Source: Mycoplasma sp. CAG:956
Lineage (GTDB): Bacteria; Bacillota_I; Bacilli_A; RF39; UBA660
Assembly: GCA_000433475.1 (NCBI GenBank)
Contig: HF993109.1
Coordinates: 133,712-197,711, forward strand
Reading direction: 5' to 3'
DNA length: 64,000 nt
Shown here: one piece after another, positions 17,901 through 48,103 of the stretch
How the letters are laid out: every line of letters starts with the position of its first letter
Position numbering within the stretch: the stretch's first letter is position 1
Notes under the pieces: model-generated
Told to the model about the DNA's origin: nothing
What the model saw: the letters and a program-made list of their open reading frames with translations, nothing else
Database searches by the model: none
Translations under genes and position numbers: made by a program

Positions 17901-19513
17901 ATTTTCCTAATAATGATTTGGCAACAAATTTAATATTAACTGCTAATTCTGAAAAATTTCCGATTACTAGACCTAACTTTTTTAAACAGTTATATCGCCA
18001 TAATGCTGATAATACTTATACTTTAACAATTAATCAGCAAAAATATCCTAAAACAAGCCTAGTTATTCATGAAATTCTAAGTAGTTTTAAAGAATTTCAT
18101 TTAATAAATGCTACCAATGCTCATCAATTATTTGGTAACTTTGATTTTCAATATAATCCTGACTTTTATAATTTTTTCATAACTAATTTAGATACAATAT
18201 TAAATGATACTGAAAATTCTAGGTATTTGGGTTCTATTCAAAAACAATTTAAAGATATTAAAACAATAAATTCTAATCGTCACCTAACTTGGCAGATGGC
18301 AGTTAACTATGTTTTAGAAAATAAGTTTACCAATGTTAATCTTGGTAACGAACAAATGGCTGCTGTTTCATCTATTGCAGGCTATACCCAAGAACAATTT
18401 GAAAAACTACAAGAAATTTATGAATATAGTAAAAGAAGAGTAAAAAGTAGTATTCCTCATATCGAAGAAAGAACTGATGATTACACTTATGAGACCTTAA
18501 GATTAGATGATCCATTAGGTCTTGCTATTGGTACCCTTACTGATTGCTGTCAGGAAATAGATGATGCTGCCGAAGTTTGTATGGAACACTCAATGACAAG
18601 TTCCGATGGTCGTATTTTTGTCATAAAAGATAAAGAAAATAATATTGTAGCTCAAAGTTGGGTATGGCGAAATCAAAATGTTTTATGTTTTGATAATATA
18701 GAAATTCCTCACAAAGCCTTTGAACGAGCTATCCAAAAAAAGATAAATTTAACCCAAGTAGTTTATGATATATATAAACAAGCTGCTAATATTTTATTAG
18801 AAAAAGATAAAGAAATGTATAAGTCTTTATTGGAAAAAGGAAAGATAACAAAAGAAGAATATGATGCCCTATGTTTATCAAAAGTAACTGTTGGATTAGG
18901 TTATAATGATATTGCCGAAGAATTAGAAAAACAAGCAACACTTGATAATGGTATTCTTACTCATCCTCTTGATTATGATGCTCCAGTAAAGTTAAATCGT
19001 AGTCTTTATACCAATGACTCTAAAACCCAATATATTATTGCTGGCAACCAAGATCGTCTAAATAGAAGCCCAATGGAAACTAAAGCTTTATATACCGATG
19101 ACTTTAAAATTTATGATGATACTAACTTCCAAGAAAAAGATTATTTACATTTAATGAAATTAGAACTATTAACTGAAAATGGTAGCGATGATTTGAACTA
19201 TGCATTAACTAAATCAAGAAAAGATGAAAGCTTCCTAACTATTTTAGCTCGTTGTTATAATTTAGATCCTAAAACAACCCAAGTAATTTATAATAGTAAT
19301 ATGTCTATAATCTATGATATAAAAGATGATACCTTAAGAATAGGTAAAATTCTTTATAATTCAAATAACTATGATGTAGCTTATTACCAAATAAAAATAG
19401 CTATAGAAAAAATAGCCCAAGATAAAAATATAGATTTATCATTATCAGATAAAAATACCCAAGATTTATATAACAAAATAAATCTTAATAATGATATAAA
19501 GAGTAGGAGTTAA
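14921..19513 (+). CDS. Giant (1530 aa) cytoplasmic hypothetical protein
   Basis: RBS TAGGAG; no signal peptide or TM; Cys cluster GTLTDCCQEIDDAAEVCMEHSMTS near aa 1190; no family recognised. Confidence 0.75.
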   Translation: MNNKLSIEEFRKYKEQLQKIIDDFKNNYEVMKNNPSYNEAQEEEKSIAAYFKIEQDLFSHDLSAIPYEEYQNLSIMATDQEELDLSNSHANIDFSLIEVFGHCNFKGCNLKNIEKVNDRISPKYLDTDIFLKNKDLFLSSSFPEWFQEKWYYGDLSIEDVTKLDKTLIEELISNPQILYHLSNSHDVYIIRNLGLKKALSIYNYSKEEYQVLNNLIFNLSSANFNKIDQSLTDPEAIIKNIYQISVDDILAVDNEYFKRRLKPESYHQKFVEANENIFKTKSNLPEDVKNRYYEHNLSVNDVLNNYEEFKNIPLLGFMKSITSSSKDIICNINLAYGSMAFQQVYPLYPKLIKHLNDADIFLSFNKNYDVKTGLRDAVTNCLECFKEKKVPDWANEMFTSIVPKYYDISNLKKYNPQICLYDPLQRKIVETNNVDNAIKFNDETHFFDYVDDRSPVNAFILYLKRSNIDFKEFATYQEFRAFMAEHLGKMREKNYFKDYDSYAFIPTYSKAFYQDFRHIFIDLNSNGTLQKAFYDNRLTPDYIRLYPKCFKDLEHEDLRYVISSDNKKFKEVFIPFYTSHFGNLALLDIFKKYAYNNYLVDSLDQIKLDEGMTKEQIDKKIRSITYSNILKYSQFYWKNLKSDPLFAKEYPELILSEDEIMTPSGIVQNDIIDKFYRGKLTFDDIFTCKPLALALQHKNINVAIRNNSTYYFGNGMNEAQIYLKQLGQEDFLKLCSTFGKFLDNSINRIKFSNDISYSELCKQLEELTVKKATYEGIPFNESNAPSFLVQQHPELFLDESAPWGLKMAFEDGIDFYSLAANYNETFPFLKDKAAVSFFIRKDKGHKGAIANYFNLFGNIDALKLAGKKPDIVTKMIHHDKVYNLRTWYLKTGGKFIPDPVVMENFPLDDVDKFLTAGFKWSNLMRLSEFTKNDETKEALLKIAYVFGTFDNDDRGYKKVYDLLTELPTKFKEDIGYIFDNLDNALDSNANFNVYFPNNDLATNLILTANSEKFPITRPNFFKQLYRHNADNTYTLTINQQKYPKTSLVIHEILSSFKEFHLINATNAHQLFGNFDFQYNPDFYNFFITNLDTILNDTENSRYLGSIQKQFKDIKTINSNRHLTWQMAVNYVLENKFTNVNLGNEQMAAVSSIAGYTQEQFEKLQEIYEYSKRRVKSSIPHIEERTDDYTYETLRLDDPLGLAIGTLTDCCQEIDDAAEVCMEHSMTSSDGRIFVIKDKENNIVAQSWVWRNQNVLCFDNIEIPHKAFERAIQKKINLTQVVYDIYKQAANILLEKDKEMYKSLLEKGKITKEEYDALCLSKVTVGLGYNDIAEELEKQATLDNGILTHPLDYDAPVKLNRSLYTNDSKTQYIIAGNQDRLNRSPMETKALYTDDFKIYDDTNFQEKDYLHLMKLELLTENGSDDLNYALTKSRKDESFLTILARCYNLDPKTTQVIYNSNMSIIYDIKDDTLRIGKILYNSNNYDVAYYQIKIAIEKIAQDKNIDLSLSDKNTQDLYNKINLNNDIKSRS

Positions 19514-19515
19514 CT

Positions 19516-20496
19516 ATGTTAGATAATAATTTAGATACTATAATTAATAAAACTTATATTATCGATAAAACCCCTTTAAATGAAGAAAAAATAAAAAAAG
19601 TAATAATAAGTCTAAAAGACAGTATTATTTCTAGTAAAGAAGAAATTACAGCGGCAAATGCTATAGATATAAAAAATCATAATGGCAATATAATTGACTT
19701 TTCTATTATTGAAAGAATATTTAAAAATATTAATAATGAAAAAATTTATTATGGTAATGTAACAACCCTAAAAAAAGATAATAATAAGTATTATGGCAAA
19801 CAATACTTTGATAAAGGCAATGTCTTAATTTTTAATACAGGCAATCCTTATATTATCTTAGAAATATTTTTAAAAAACTTTTTAGCAGGTAATACTTCTA
19901 TTATTGTTACTACTAATTATGCATATGGCTTAAATAAATTATTAGAAACCATTATTAAAACTGTGTTAGAAACAAATAATCTATCACCAGACTTTATTAA
20001 CTTACTTACAACTGATGCCCCCGAAGAATTATTAAAAAATAATTATGCCAATATTGATTTAGTAATAGCACTTGGTAATAAATCTTTCCAAAATAAGATT
20101 ACTAACTATTCTAAAGTACCTGTTTTACTTAGTGGCTATGAAACATTTGATTTATATATTGATGAAATGTTAGATAAAACTTTTCTAACAAAGATAATTA
20201 ATCTTCATTTACCAATGCACGTTTATATTAATAAAAATTTAAAAATTGATTTACGAGGTAGTATGTTAGTAGATGGAGTAGAGGAAGCTATTATGCAAAT
20301 TAATTATAATGGTAATGGTTATAGTAGTGCTATATTTACTAGTAATGATGATAATGCCGCTAATTTTATTAGTAAAGTTAAGTCCAAGATAGTTACGGTT
20401 AATACTAGTCCTACTATTGAAAGACTAATGGATATACAAGTTAAGGATTTAGTCTTAGAAAAGACCGTTATTTATCCTAATAAAAAGAAAAACTAG
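19516..20496 (+). CDS. Shortened gamma-glutamyl-phosphate reductase (ProA)-like protein lacking the ALDH catalytic Cys (probable pseudoenzyme)
   Basis: 326 aa vs ~415 for ProA; by-eye alignment, recalling the E. coli ProA sequence from memory: LDDAI.HIN.HG..HSDAILT.D...A.RFV..VDS.AVYVNASTRF vs ours VEEAIMQINYNGNGYSSAIFTSNDDNAANFISKVKSKIVTVNTSPTIE; position of the ProA ..STCNTVE.. catalytic Cys reads HLPMHVYINKN; start 3 nt after upstream stop. Confidence 0.5.
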   Translation: MLDNNLDTIINKTYIIDKTPLNEEKIKKVIISLKDSIISSKEEITAANAIDIKNHNGNIIDFSIIERIFKNINNEKIYYGNVTTLKKDNNKYYGKQYFDKGNVLIFNTGNPYIILEIFLKNFLAGNTSIIVTTNYAYGLNKLLETIIKTVLETNNLSPDFINLLTTDAPEELLKNNYANIDLVIALGNKSFQNKITNYSKVPVLLSGYETFDLYIDEMLDKTFLTKIINLHLPMHVYINKNLKIDLRGSMLVDGVEEAIMQINYNGNGYSSAIFTSNDDNAANFISKVKSKIVTVNTSPTIERLMDIQVKDLVLEKTVIYPNKKKN

Positions 20497-34145: not shown

Positions 34146-34940
34146 TTATTTATCATTTTTCTTATAGCCTTTCTTTTTGTTAATTTTCTTTCCTTTAATT
34201 CTAGTTGTATTATAAAATTCTATCCATTCTTCAACTAATTGTATGTATTCTTCTAAAGATGTGATATCATTGTTATACAAAGTTTCCTTTTTTAGGAGAG
34301 AGTGCCAACTCTCAATTGGTGAGTCATCTATTGGAGTACCTTTTCTAGACATAGAAATAGTAATTCCATTAGATTCACAAATAGCTTTGTATTCATAAGA
34401 TGTATACTGGAATCCTTGGTCGGAATGTATTATTAATTCAGATACATCTTTTCTTTTTGCTATCGCTTTATTTAAAGTATCCATAACTAATTTATTATCA
34501 TTATGTTTTGATATTTTATATGCAACTACTTTTCTATCATACAAATCAATTATTGTTGATAAATATGCTCTAGAACCCTTAAATATAAGATATGTTACAT
34601 CTGTATCCCAAACTTTATTAGGTGCATCAGTGTTAAAATTACGATTTAATAAATTAGGTTTAACATTATCTTCAATTCTTTCATTTTTATTTTTCTTTTT
34701 TGATTCCCTTACATATTTAGGAATCAAATTATATTTTTTCATTATTCTTAAAACCTTCTTTCCATTCATTACAACTCCTTCATATTTGACTTTAATGCCT
34801 TCCGCAACGCGACGATATCCATATGTGCCCTTAGATTCATCAAATACTTCTTTAATTATCAAATAATCATAATAATCAGGATCTTCCTTATTTCGATATT
34901 TATAGTAAGTTTTAGAACTTATCTCTAATACGACACACAT
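34146..34940 (-). CDS. IS3-family transposase OrfB (DDE/rve integrase core)
   Basis: D..WDTDVTY, HSDQGFQYTS, ..E.. ..YNTTRIK motifs; frame -1 relative to orfA ((35278-34940) mod 3 = 2); orfB reading frame extends upstream of its first ATG. Confidence 0.85.
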   Translation of the reverse strand: MCVVLEISSKTYYKYRNKEDPDYYDYLIIKEVFDESKGTYGYRRVAEGIKVKYEGVVMNGKKVLRIMKKYNLIPKYVRESKKKNKNERIEDNVKPNLLNRNFNTDAPNKVWDTDVTYLIFKGSRAYLSTIIDLYDRKVVAYKISKHNDNKLVMDTLNKAIAKRKDVSELIIHSDQGFQYTSYEYKAICESNGITISMSRKGTPIDDSPIESWHSLLKKETLYNNDITSLEEYIQLVEEWIEFYNTTRIKGKKINKKKGYKKNDK

Positions 34941-36836: not shown

Positions 36837-39800
36837 ATGAGAAAAATAGTTGATGGTAATACTGCTTGTAGTAATATTGCTAATCTATTTACAGAAATTG
36901 CATCAATTTATCCTATTACACCATCTAGTCCGATGGCTAGTAATATCGATAATTTAAAATTAAAAAAGAAAAATTTATTCAATGAATCCGTTGAGGTTGT
37001 AGAAATGCAAAGCGAAGCTGGTGCCGCTGGTGCTATGCACGGAGCCTTAATTAGTGGTTCTCTAGCGACTACTTTTACAGCATCGCAAGGACTACTTTTA
37101 ATGATTCCTAATATGTATAAAATTGCCGGTGAAGGCTTACCAGGAGTAATTCACGTTGCGGCTCGTACCGTTGCTACCCATGCCTTATCAATCTTTGGTG
37201 ACCATAGTGATATTTATGCGACTCGTGGTACTGGCTTTGCAATGCTCGCATCAACCAATGTTTTTGATGCCCAAAACTTAGCAGCTGTTGCTCATCTTTC
37301 AACCATTGAAGGTAGTGTTCCTTTCTTACATTTTTTTGATGGTTTTAGAACTAGTCATGAACTAAATAGTATTGAGGAATTACCAGATGAAGAACTTCTA
37401 AAATTAATTGATTTTGATAAAGTAAATGCCTTTAAAAAGCATGCTCTTAATGTTGGCTGTGGCTACCAAAGAGGTATGGCAGAAAACGAAGATATTTACT
37501 TCCAAAGTGTTGAAGCCCGTAATGCTGATTATTTAAAAATACCTGATATCGTAAATAATTATATGGAAAAAATTAATAGTATTATGCATACTGATTATAA
37601 ACCATTCAATTACTATGGCTCAGAGACTGCTAAGTATGTCATTGTTGCCATGGGTAGTGTTTGTGATACCATAAAGCTTACTATTAATGAATTAAATAAA
37701 GAAAATAATATTTATGGTCTAATCGAAGTTCATCTATACCGTCCATTTAGTAAAGATTATCTAACCAAAGTTTTACCAAGTACGGTAGAAAAAATAGCTG
37801 TCTTAGATAGAACAAAAGAATCAGGTAGCATTGGTGAACCATTATATCTAGATGTCGTTGCATCTCTTAATGATAAAAATATCCAAATTGTCGGCGGACG
37901 TTACGGCTTATCTAGCAAAAATACAACTCCAAGTGATATCGCTGGTGTTTATAAAATGCTAGCAACCGAACTTAAAAACAACTTTACAATCGGTATTAAC
38001 GACGATGTAACTAACTTAAGTTTAACAAGAGTGCCAATGGATATTGAGGTTGCCGATAAAGAACTTATTATCTATGGTTATGGTTCTGATGGTATGGTAT
38101 CAACTTCTAAAGATATCATGCATTATCTAGGCGAAGAAAAAGACTTACACGTTCAAGGTTACTTCCAATACGATAGCAAAAAATCTGGTGGTGTAACTGT
38201 CTCTAACCTAAGAATGTCAAGTAAACCAATAAATGCACCTTATTATGTTCTTCATCCATCATTACTAGTTATTACTAAAGATGCTTATTTAAAAGATTTT
38301 GATATGTTTAGTAATTTAAAAGAAAATGGTATTTGCTTAATTAATACTAATAAAAAATCTCATGAATTAGATGAAGTTTTACCTAATAAAGCTAAAGATT
38401 TAATTAAAAATAAAAATATTAAAGTATTATTAATTGATGCTGATAAGATAGCTTTAGAAAATGGTATTAAAGGTAAAATTAGTAAAATTATGGAAATCGT
38501 TATCTTAAAACTAATGGGATTTAATGATGCTGAAGATTATATCAAAGATTCTATTCGTAAAAAGTTCGGTACTAAGGGTGATGATATTGTCAATGCTAAT
38601 ATTAACTCTTTAAGTAGTGCAGTTAAGAGTGTTATCCTTGTTAAAGCTGAATTTAAAAATAAAGAAGAAACAGAGTCCCATGATGATATCTTTACTTTAA
38701 TTAATAAAAGAGAAGGGGATAACCTTAAAGTATCTGATTTAATGGCTTATAAGAATGGTATCTTCCCTAATGGTCTTGCTGCTAATGAAAAACGTAAAAT
38801 AACTAATATGGTACCAAAATGGATACCTGAAAATTGCATTCAATGTGGTATGTGTGCAACCGTTTGTCCTCACGCAGTAATTCGCCCAATTATAACCGAA
38901 GCTAAAGATGAAGAAAGAGGTATTAAAGTACTAGGACATACTGATTATAATTATGAGATTGTCGTTAGTGAAGCTGACTGTACTTCTTGTGGTTTATGTA
39001 TCAATGCTTGTCTTGGTAAATCCGGTAAGAAAGCTCTAGAATTTGGTGAAGCAACATATGAAACTCAAGATTATGCTGATAAAATGTTTAAAGAACATAA
39101 AAATCCGGAAATTTTTGATAGATTTACTTTAAAAGGTGCATCTCTAAGAAAACCATGCTTTGAATTTAGTGGTGCTTGTGCTGGTTGTGGTGAAACTCCA
39201 TACTTAAAGATGCTAAGTCAATTATTTGGTGAAAAATTAGTTATTGCTAATGCAACAGGTTGTTCATCAATCTACGGTGGTTCTGCTCCATCAACCCCAT
39301 ACTTAATTCCTTGGGCTAACTCATTATTTGAAGATAATGCTGAATTCGGTTATGGTATGTATTTAACTTATAAAAATACCCAAAAACGTATTCGTGATAT
39401 TATTGCTAAGTCTATAGATTGCGTAAGCGAAGACGTAAAAGAGTTACTAAATAAATGGTTAGAAAATGAAACTAATTATGATATAACTAAAGAAATCGTT
39501 GATAAATTACAAACTATGGAAATTCCAAAAGACATAAAAGATATTATAGAATACATGGTTGCTCGTAGTGTCTTTATCGTCGGTGGTGATGGTTGGGCTT
39601 ATGATATTGGCTTTGGTGGTATCGACCATGTCTTATCTAGTGGTGAAAATGTTAATGTCTTAGTACTTGATACTGAGGTCTACTCAAATACTGGTGGTCA
39701 AGCATCTAAATCAAGCCGTGTTGGAGCCGTAGCTGAATTTGCTAACATGGGTAAAAAAACAGCTAAGAAAGACTTATTTAAAATAGCTATGTCATATCCA

Positions 39801-40205
39801 AACTGTTATATCGGTAGTATCTCTTTCGGTGCTAACTTCATGCAAACTATAAAAACCATGAAAGAAGCTGAATCTCATAATGGACCAAGTTTGATTATTT
39901 GCTATTGTCCATGTATCGAACAAGGACTTCATGGAGGTATGTCAAACTCTATAAGTGAAGAAAAACTAGCTGTAGAATGTGGTTATGTTAATTTAATGCG
40001 TTATGTACCAGAAGATAAGAAGTTATATATCGATTCTAAAGAACCAGATTTTACTAAGTATGAAGACTTCTTAAAGAATGAAGTAAGATATAGTAGTCTA
40101 ATAAAGAAAGATAACGAACTTGCTAAAGAATTATTAGATATTCAAGTAAATAATGCTAAAGAAAGATATAACTTCTATAAAGATATAGCAAGTAAAAATA
40201 ATTAA
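36837..40205 (+). CDS. nifJ: Pyruvate:ferredoxin (flavodoxin) oxidoreductase, single-polypeptide PFOR
   Basis: 1122 aa; two 4Fe-4S ferredoxin motifs CIQCGMCATVCPH and CTSCGLCINAC; TPP-binding GDGWAYDIGFGG; typical PFOR N-terminus. Confidence 0.95.
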   Translation: MRKIVDGNTACSNIANLFTEIASIYPITPSSPMASNIDNLKLKKKNLFNESVEVVEMQSEAGAAGAMHGALISGSLATTFTASQGLLLMIPNMYKIAGEGLPGVIHVAARTVATHALSIFGDHSDIYATRGTGFAMLASTNVFDAQNLAAVAHLSTIEGSVPFLHFFDGFRTSHELNSIEELPDEELLKLIDFDKVNAFKKHALNVGCGYQRGMAENEDIYFQSVEARNADYLKIPDIVNNYMEKINSIMHTDYKPFNYYGSETAKYVIVAMGSVCDTIKLTINELNKENNIYGLIEVHLYRPFSKDYLTKVLPSTVEKIAVLDRTKESGSIGEPLYLDVVASLNDKNIQIVGGRYGLSSKNTTPSDIAGVYKMLATELKNNFTIGINDDVTNLSLTRVPMDIEVADKELIIYGYGSDGMVSTSKDIMHYLGEEKDLHVQGYFQYDSKKSGGVTVSNLRMSSKPINAPYYVLHPSLLVITKDAYLKDFDMFSNLKENGICLINTNKKSHELDEVLPNKAKDLIKNKNIKVLLIDADKIALENGIKGKISKIMEIVILKLMGFNDAEDYIKDSIRKKFGTKGDDIVNANINSLSSAVKSVILVKAEFKNKEETESHDDIFTLINKREGDNLKVSDLMAYKNGIFPNGLAANEKRKITNMVPKWIPENCIQCGMCATVCPHAVIRPIITEAKDEERGIKVLGHTDYNYEIVVSEADCTSCGLCINACLGKSGKKALEFGEATYETQDYADKMFKEHKNPEIFDRFTLKGASLRKPCFEFSGACAGCGETPYLKMLSQLFGEKLVIANATGCSSIYGGSAPSTPYLIPWANSLFEDNAEFGYGMYLTYKNTQKRIRDIIAKSIDCVSEDVKELLNKWLENETNYDITKEIVDKLQTMEIPKDIKDIIEYMVARSVFIVGGDGWAYDIGFGGIDHVLSSGENVNVLVLDTEVYSNTGGQASKSSRVGAVAEFANMGKKTAKKDLFKIAMSYPNCYIGSISFGANFMQTIKTMKEAESHNGPSLIICYCPCIEQGLHGGMSNSISEEKLAVECGYVNLMRYVPEDKKLYIDSKEPDFTKYEDFLKNEVRYSSLIKKDNELAKELLDIQVNNAKERYNFYKDIASKNN

Positions 40206-47942: not shown

Positions 47943-48019
47943 GCACCCATAGCGCAATTGGATAGAGCGTTAGACTACGGATCTAAAGGTTAGGGGTTCG
48001 ACTCCCTTTGGGCGCACCA
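47943..48019 (+). tRNA. tRNA-Arg (anticodon ACG)
   Basis: Cloverleaf by hand: acceptor GCACCCA/TGGGCGC (one A3-C70 mismatch), D-loop AATTGGATA, anticodon loop CTACGGA, T-arm AGGGG-TTCGACT-CCCTT, encoded CCA. Confidence 0.75.
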
Positions 48020-48026
48020 CGTATTT

Positions 48027-48103
48027 CGAGAAGTAGCACAGTTTGGTAGTGCACTTGGTTTGGGACCAAGGGGTCGCAGGTTCGAATCCTGTCTTCTCGA
48101 CCA
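48027..48103 (+). tRNA. tRNA-Pro (anticodon UGG)
   Basis: Acceptor CGAGAAG/CTTCTCG with C1-G72 typical of bacterial tRNA-Pro, anticodon loop TTTGGGA, T-arm GCAGG-TTCGAAT-CCTGT, encoded CCA. Confidence 0.85.

Follow-up and report, generated by a model that had tools for sequence, protein, structure and literature searches.

A conserved ProA-derived pseudoenzyme is encoded beside a giant, predicted GNAT-like protein in uncultured gut Bacilli

Introduction

The closest described system to the protein analysed here is the ProA/GPR domain of P5CS (ALDH18; EC 1.2.1.41; NF001221, TIGR00407; PDB 1O20, 4GHK, 8ZOK, 2H5G). In enzymes of the ProA type a nucleophilic Cys forms the thioacyl intermediate and, together with a neighbouring Asn, corresponds to C598/N599 in Drosophila P5CS (PMC8963878; PMC11061531), in which the Arg and Asp of the 'NASTRFTDG' segment that bind G5P are R712 and D715 (PMC11061531). 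Oligomerisation elements shared with other ALDHs mediate dimerisation of the GPR domain (PMC8963878). Pseudoenzymes are already known in the ALDH superfamily: vertebrate ALDH16A1 is a conserved ALDH-fold protein that has lost its catalytic residues and is thought to act via protein-protein interaction (PMC12041015).

Here we analyse a ProA-like gene and its surroundings in a stretch of 64,000 nucleotides (hereafter the window; ~26-30% G+C) from Mycoplasma sp. CAG:956, a human-gut metagenome-assembled genome. Like ProA, the 326-aa product has an NADPH-binding-domain fold, an oligomerisation hairpin and a C-terminal 'H/YS..I.T....A..F...V.S..V.VN.S' block. Unlike ProA, it lacks the Cys-Asn loop, the middle of the catalytic domain, the 'STQK.HARGP' segment and the G5P-binding Arg/Asp pair, and its gene is located not beside proB but beside a gene for a giant GNAT-like protein. 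It resembles ALDH16A1 in being a conserved ALDH-superfamily pseudoenzyme, whereas ALDH16A1 belongs to another ALDH family, is eukaryotic, combines a full-length ALDH domain with an extra C-terminal domain, and shows neither a large internal deletion nor linkage to a GNAT-like partner. In a literature search neither a ProA/ALDH18-derived pseudoenzyme family nor the giant partner was found described, and nothing specific on the RF39/CAG context came up. We hold with high confidence that a conserved but catalytically dead ProA is here paired with a giant protein of GNAT-like type. The features discussed below are collected in Table 1.

Table 1. Coordinates of the ProA-like gene, its giant partner and other annotated features of the window.
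Feature	Position	Strand	Basis or remarks
HA-domain protein, 383 aa	5379-6530		Pfam PF03457
HA-domain protein, 465 aa	9460-10857		Pfam PF03457
ORF, 266 aa	14095-14895		matches phrog_17023
Giant partner gene, 1,530 aa	14921-19513	+	ORF call; no Pfam/PADLOC/PHROG family, no signal peptide
Predicted GNAT-like core of giant, aa ~1182-1338	18464-18934	+	alignment, AF2, Foldseek
Gene junction: AGGAG ribosome-binding site inside 3' end of giant gene, TAA (19511-19513), 2-nt gap, ATG	19505-19518	+	sequence
ProA-derived pseudoenzyme gene, 326 aa	19516-20496	+	ORF call, ProA profiles, alignment, AF2 model, Foldseek
Catalytic-loop deletion scar 'HLPMHVYINKN', aa 231-241	20206-20238	+	alignments; profile gap
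Family-specific invariant motif 'NTSPTIER', aa 296-303	20401-20424	+	replaces ProA 'NASTRFTD'
IS-type DDE integrase (rve)	34146-34940	-	
Pyruvate:ferredoxin oxidoreductase	36837-40205		
tRNA-Arg(ACG) and tRNA-Pro(UGG), adjacent	47943-48103		
Small alarmone synthetase-like protein, 207 aa	48264-48887		RelA_SpoT domain

Results

The 326-aa protein is a truncated ProA homologue

An identical protein is present in public databases under the name 'gamma-glutamyl phosphate reductase [Mycoplasma sp. CAG:956]'. Both ProA profiles detect it with significant E-values and with scores that do not reach their cutoffs (NCBIfam NF001221, E=4.4e-22, 78.4 bits, cutoff 289; TIGR00407, E=1.4e-19, 70.2 bits, cutoff 317). 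The match falls into two parts, aa 21-228 (profile positions 24-247) and aa ~250-300, the latter part matching the C-terminal block, with a gap between profile positions ~247 and ~330. The Pfam Aldedh profile (PF00171) scores 18.7 bits, under its cutoff of 23, and covers only the C-terminal ~50 aa; the protein is related to the aldehyde dehydrogenase superfamily at the level of fold only. Among solved structures, its sequence matches are the ProA/GPR proteins 1O20, 4GHK, 1VLU and 8ZOK.

An AlphaFold2 model generated with 68 family sequences as input (pLDDT 94.5, pTM 0.91) was compared with the PDB using Foldseek, and each of the top 18 matches was a ProA or P5CS reductase domain (lowest E 7e-19, TMq 0.53-0.71). 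Model and structural matches together reveal the three-domain ALDH18 fold as a short scaffold: the fold of the NADPH-binding domain is retained, as is the oligomerisation hairpin, and the catalytic domain is truncated. The protein is a true ProA homologue, with a similarity far above chance, and the profiles, the model and the structural matches thus bear out the homology that a first-pass annotation had proposed from a by-eye alignment. The C-terminal ProA block named in that annotation is present as 'YSSAIFTSNDDNAANFISKVKSKIVTVNTSP', and its remark that no proB lies adjacent agrees with a Pfam scan, which identified neither proB nor proC among the window ORFs it covered.

Catalytic and substrate-binding sites are deleted or substituted

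Forty members of the short family were aligned with 15 full-length ProAs in order to locate the missing segments. At 326 aa against the 410-425 aa of ProA, the window protein is shorter by ~90 aa, as first estimated by eye. The 9-residue ProA catalytic loop 'TQRPSVCNA' falls in a gap between 'HLPM' and 'HVYINKN', within the stretch (aa 231-241) that the first-pass annotation had read at the site of the catalytic Cys, and ~60 further residues of the catalytic domain following the Cys-Asn loop are also deleted. A second deletion removes ~14 aa from the N-terminal helical hairpin, and a third removes 8-19 aa around the C-terminal 'DGGEFGLG/STQKLHARGP'. The Cys-Asn loop is absent from all 40 aligned short-family sequences as well as from the window protein, and the profile comparison likewise leaves a gap at the Cys position within an otherwise significant ProA match. 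No conserved Cys occurs at or near the old nucleophile site anywhere in the aligned short family, in which the sole frequent Cys column corresponds to window position 185, an Ala in the window protein.

The substrate-binding residues have fared no better. The ProA segment 'NASTRFTD' is replaced by 'NTSPTIER', and therefore the G5P-binding Arg and Asp (R371/D374 in the reference ProA, P0236) become Thr300 and Arg303. Eighty columns are shared by 13 or more of the 15 ProAs; only 13 of these are kept, in the sense that 70% or more of the short family has them, whereas 15 are deleted and the remainder are substituted. In P0236 numbering, the residues lost include R125, K138, R203, G205, H229, K249, C256, N257, E312, H340, D360, R371 and D374, and R125 (in ProA 'ESRPN'), K138, R203/G205 (in 'PRGG'), H229, H340, D360 and R371/D374 are among those substituted. 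The positions of the Asn/Glu/Cys catalytic triad of the ALDH superfamily are, likewise, either deleted or substituted. The earlier proposal of a ProA-like pseudoenzyme devoid of the catalytic Cys is hence supported and extended to the G5P-binding pair. Judged by its residues, the 326-aa protein should be incapable of the ProA reaction by the known mechanism, and the scaffold may keep some residual binding of NAD(P)H or a metabolite.

The short family is conserved and under purifying selection

More than 700 proteins match the ProA-like query at E<=1e-3, with homologues of ~300-340 aa, and the best 120 matches are all 318-350 aa long. An exhaustive HMMER search against 1.84 billion cluster representatives returned 199 representatives, among which full-length matches (270-340 aa) reach down to ~22% identity, and in which true ProAs (400-430 aa) match in two separate stretches only. 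The same deletions are found in all clades, which points to a single ancestral event. Residues D51, G101, Y112, N126, N140, G187, Y214, N263, T275, F284, N296, P299 and K316 are invariant or nearly so across the family, and the closer subfamily shares the motifs GNPY, AGNT, SGYENFDLYIED, NTSPTIER and EKTIIYP. Comparison with an 85%-identical orthologue (locus L005) yielded a dN/dS of 0.082/0.49, or ~0.17. With homology to ProA, loss of the catalytic residues and conservation at this dN/dS all observed, the ProA-like protein qualifies as a pseudoenzyme maintained by purifying selection rather than as a pseudogene. The first-pass annotation had left open whether the scaffold was decaying or repurposed: the same-length homologues, the motifs of their own and the dN/dS contradict decay, and the position of the gene downstream of a giant GNAT-like partner, on which that annotation does not remark, speaks for repurposing.

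One subclade (P0136, P0150, P0154 and P0162; loci L083 and L085) carries a C-terminal extension of ~60-110 aa, in which a charged, coiled-coil-like stretch precedes the conserved motif '...LQE..nLa.KY...F..S.LsRlFg.L.K.dl..D.kLL'. Such an extension, with its conserved terminal helix, fits a role as a structural subunit.

No relative of the ProA-like protein was found on the viral contigs searched. Matches labelled as phage were rejected, as they proved to be full-length, ProA-sized ORFs on unverified faecal contigs.

The ProA-like gene is paired with a giant upstream gene

The ProA-like gene is located immediately downstream of a gene encoding a protein of 1,530 aa, and the layout of their junction (Table 1) fits translational coupling of the two genes. 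To survey the arrangement in other organisms we used a ProA-like family alignment as query and one genome per GTDB species. This survey identified 70 loci, all of them in gut metagenome-assembled genomes that for the most part carry the labels Bacilli, Tenericutes, 'Mycoplasma sp. CAG' or 'Clostridium sp. CAG'. Of these species-level loci, 65 include 2 kb or more of upstream DNA, and in 59 of the 65 the ProA-like start directly adjoins, on the same strand, the C-terminal end of a giant homologue. Among 57 complete pairs, 55 have overlapping ORFs, the overlap being 11-47 nt when ORFs are called from the earliest possible start codon. Homology between the giant genes extends from end to end (33-39% identity), and the dN/dS of the giant gene, ~0.17, equals that of the ProA-like gene. 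No third conserved gene accompanies the pair in the surveyed loci; recurrent neighbours, at varying positions, resemble housekeeping genes (ABC transporters, ClpB, FtsW) on a look at their sequences made without a profile search. A scan for promoters and terminators around the pair gave no signal above shuffled background in this 26% GC DNA.

The pairing persists among members that share only 29-33% identity, with P0148, P0136 and P0154 encoded after or between giants (giant-ProAL or giant-ProAL-giant) in which hmmsearch finds the same C-terminal domain, at E 1e-89 to 1e-211. DUF4116 repeats occur at the N-terminus of some of the giants paired with distant members.

Variations on this arrangement were also observed. 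In some lineages (L076, L085, L029, L011) two giant CCQ-GNAT paralogues enclose the ProA-like gene or the pair occurs as a tandem duplicate, and at L076 (2729-11739) the giants bear 11 N-terminal DUF4116 repeats in place of the helical region seen in the window. One copy, at L070, is apparently degraded. In the window itself, the 266-aa ORF ending 25 nt before the giant gene matches the phage family phrog_17023 (E=4e-12), and none of the genes seen recurrently around the pair elsewhere proved to be its homologue.

Three orthologues (L013, L018, L048) are orphans with no adjacent giant gene. In a distant clade, the ProA-like gene of L079 is located beside an unrelated 774-aa helical protein, again with no adjacent giant. 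At L072/L073 (9116-11798) a short ProA-like gene (314 aa, 25% identical) is found between HD-domain and DHH/DHHA1 (NrnA-like) genes, downstream of pta-ackA-ackA and with no giant partner, an arrangement that may represent a second, different use of the dead scaffold. These loci lack an adjacent giant, and the ProA-like protein may therefore also act alone or in trans.

The giant protein carries a predicted GNAT-like core

The giant protein has an N-terminal region of ~1,180 aa, helical and repeat-like, and a conserved C-terminal region of ~700 aa. Pfam and NCBIfam searches with the whole protein and with its halves returned only sub-threshold SHOCT-like matches, and PADLOC and PHROGs gave nothing meaningful for either the giant or the ProA-like protein. 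A homology search with the C-terminal core produced 44 matches, all of them unannotated fragments. In an alignment of 46 sequences spanning the ~700-aa region, the near-invariant residues are D1197-P1198, C1209-C1210 (CCQ), H1223-S1224, G1230-R1231, Q1245-S-W-x-W-R-N1251, C1256-F-D-N-I-E1261 and P1263.

The AlphaFold2 model of aa 840-1530 (pLDDT 88) comprises, in order, an all-helical region, a beta-alpha-alpha-beta-beta-beta-alpha-beta-alpha unit at ~1182-1338 and a second alpha/beta unit. Foldseek aligned this model weakly (E>=1.5e-3), over ~340 columns, with tandem-GNAT proteins (Eis-like, VipF, FemX and the clavulanate tandem GNAT), and the predicted structure of the C-terminus displays GNAT topology. 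Motif A (Q/R-x-x-G-x-G/A), the acyl-CoA pyrophosphate loop that follows beta4, is absent; the corresponding segment reads 'CFDNIEIPHKAFERAIQKK' and contains no Gly. No Pfam acetyltransferase profile matched even at E<=0.1. On the strength of the model, the C-terminus can be described as GNAT-like, probably a tandem fold, of the acyl- or aminoacyl-transferase type. Among GNAT-fold comparators it resembles FemX and ATE1, in which motif A is also wanting, a resemblance that does not amount to membership of either family. FemX and ATE1 use aminoacyl-tRNA donors. Set against these and other non-canonical GNATs (FemX/FemA, ATE1/Bpt, Eis-like, VipF), the giant matches no Pfam or NCBIfam family and has a signature of its own, CCQ...HS...QSWxWRN...CFDNIE, located in the C-terminal part of a helical-repeat protein of ~1,500 aa.

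The CCQ...AQSWxW...CFDN core was also identified in ORF68L of Microcystis phage MaMV-DC (L081, 2528-4621), a 697-aa hypothetical protein sharing 40% identity with the giant core over 67 aa (pairwise E=1e-13). Its occurrence in a cyanophage protein suggests, from sequence comparison, a wider and as yet unnamed domain family.

Other features of the window

Upstream of the pair, the 383- and 465-aa proteins are made up of 4-5 copies each of the 'helicase-associated' HA domain (PF03457, E~1e-66 to 1e-68), and neither has a helicase domain. Large ORFs of 874 and 870 aa, for which no meaningful family match was obtained, are interspersed among them. Many further ORFs of the window, those of 1,171 and 850 aa included, match no Pfam family.

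Discussion

We consider it reasonably probable that the ProA-like protein serves as a non-catalytic subunit of the giant GNAT-like protein, in a complex of the two, and the best reading of the data is that it plays no part in proline synthesis. On this reading, a ProA (ALDH18) ancestor lost its Cys-Asn nucleophile loop, the central part of its catalytic domain and its C-terminal substrate loop through one ancestral set of deletions, and substitutions took out the G5P-binding Arg/Asp and most of the ProA-specific charged residues around the cofactor site, while the overall fold, oligomerisation hairpin included, was kept. The gene would be co-transcribed and translationally coupled with that of the giant upstream, and its product would be a stoichiometric subunit of the giant, either a scaffold or dimeriser or an adaptor presenting a ligand or substrate, with the giant presumably acting as the transferase. 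Given that the oligomerisation elements are kept, the ProA relic could dimerise or scaffold the giant, or else present a ligand to it.

An unlikely but more far-reaching version of this scheme would make dead ProA and giant CCQ-GNAT an unrecognised two-component machine of uncultured gut Bacilli, in which the ProA scaffold docks on the tandem-GNAT-like domain and either forms a composite active site, the invariant Cys-Cys of the partner replacing the lost nucleophile, or presents an activated acyl- or glutamyl-type ligand for transfer. If true, this would be new enzymology arising from an ALDH18 relic.

Among the alternatives to a non-catalytic subunit, the dead ProA might be an independent regulator or sensor that binds a metabolite such as NADP(H) or a glutamate-like compound by itself, with adjacency to the giant reflecting co-expression only. 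The orphan copies point in this direction, as do the distant clades in which the gene is found beside HD and DHH/DHHA1 phosphoesterase genes or beside the 774-aa helical protein. Co-expression alone would, however, call for far less than adjacency at 59 of 65 loci combined with overlapping frames, the adjacency endures at 29-33% identity, and the known ligand-binding residues are gone; we regard an independent sensor as improbable.

The protein might instead still be an enzyme, its NAD(P)H-binding scaffold supporting Cys-independent redox chemistry or receiving a nucleophile in trans, for instance from the CC of the partner in a composite active site. The Rossmann-type domain fold and the ALDH-conserved N126, G187 and N296 are kept, the partner offers an invariant Cys-Cys, His-Ser and Glu, and genes so closely coupled would be in keeping with an enzyme of two subunits. 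Yet cofactor- and substrate-site residues are substituted (R125, K138, R203/G205, H229, H340, R371, D374), the segment that bears the nucleophile and lines the substrate tunnel is deleted, and the window protein presents neither a conserved Cys nor another obvious nucleophile at the old site, leaving residual catalysis quite improbable.

GNAT toxins exist, and the giant could be a toxin or defence effector in a conflict system for which the ProA-like protein provides immunity, an antitoxin or a sensor. The two genes do make up a self-contained island whose chromosomal position varies and which is sometimes duplicated, with serine recombinases near 9 of 57 loci, and the CCQ core recurs in a cyanophage protein. 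Against this, neither protein has a PADLOC match, the ProA-like gene is missing from the viral contigs searched, and a size of ~1,500 aa, no secretion signals and broad, vertical-looking conservation within one bacterial group would be atypical of such systems, so that this explanation appears highly improbable.

A decaying proA pseudogene, left over from proline biosynthesis in a reduced genome, would account for the short length, the missing catalytic Cys, the lack of an adjacent proB and the possibly degraded copy at L070, but is effectively refuted by the intact ORF, by hundreds of homologues of the same architecture and with family-specific invariant motifs down to ~22% identity, by the dN/dS of 0.17, by the highly confident AlphaFold2 model and by the conserved gene pairing.

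The findings have consequences for annotation as well as for biology. The name 'gamma-glutamyl phosphate reductase', carried by at least one public record, would wrongly credit reduced-genome gut bacteria with a step of proline synthesis, and this annotation is no evidence for proline biosynthesis in such organisms. Although pseudoenzymes of the ALDH superfamily are known, the function of the two-gene module formed by the ProA-like protein and the giant is possibly new. The analysis defines a sizeable pseudoenzyme family derived from ALDH18 and reveals its conserved partnership with a giant, wholly unannotated family bearing a novel GNAT-like domain, and the pair thereby provides a handle on two 'dark' protein families frequently encountered in gut metagenomes of humans and animals.
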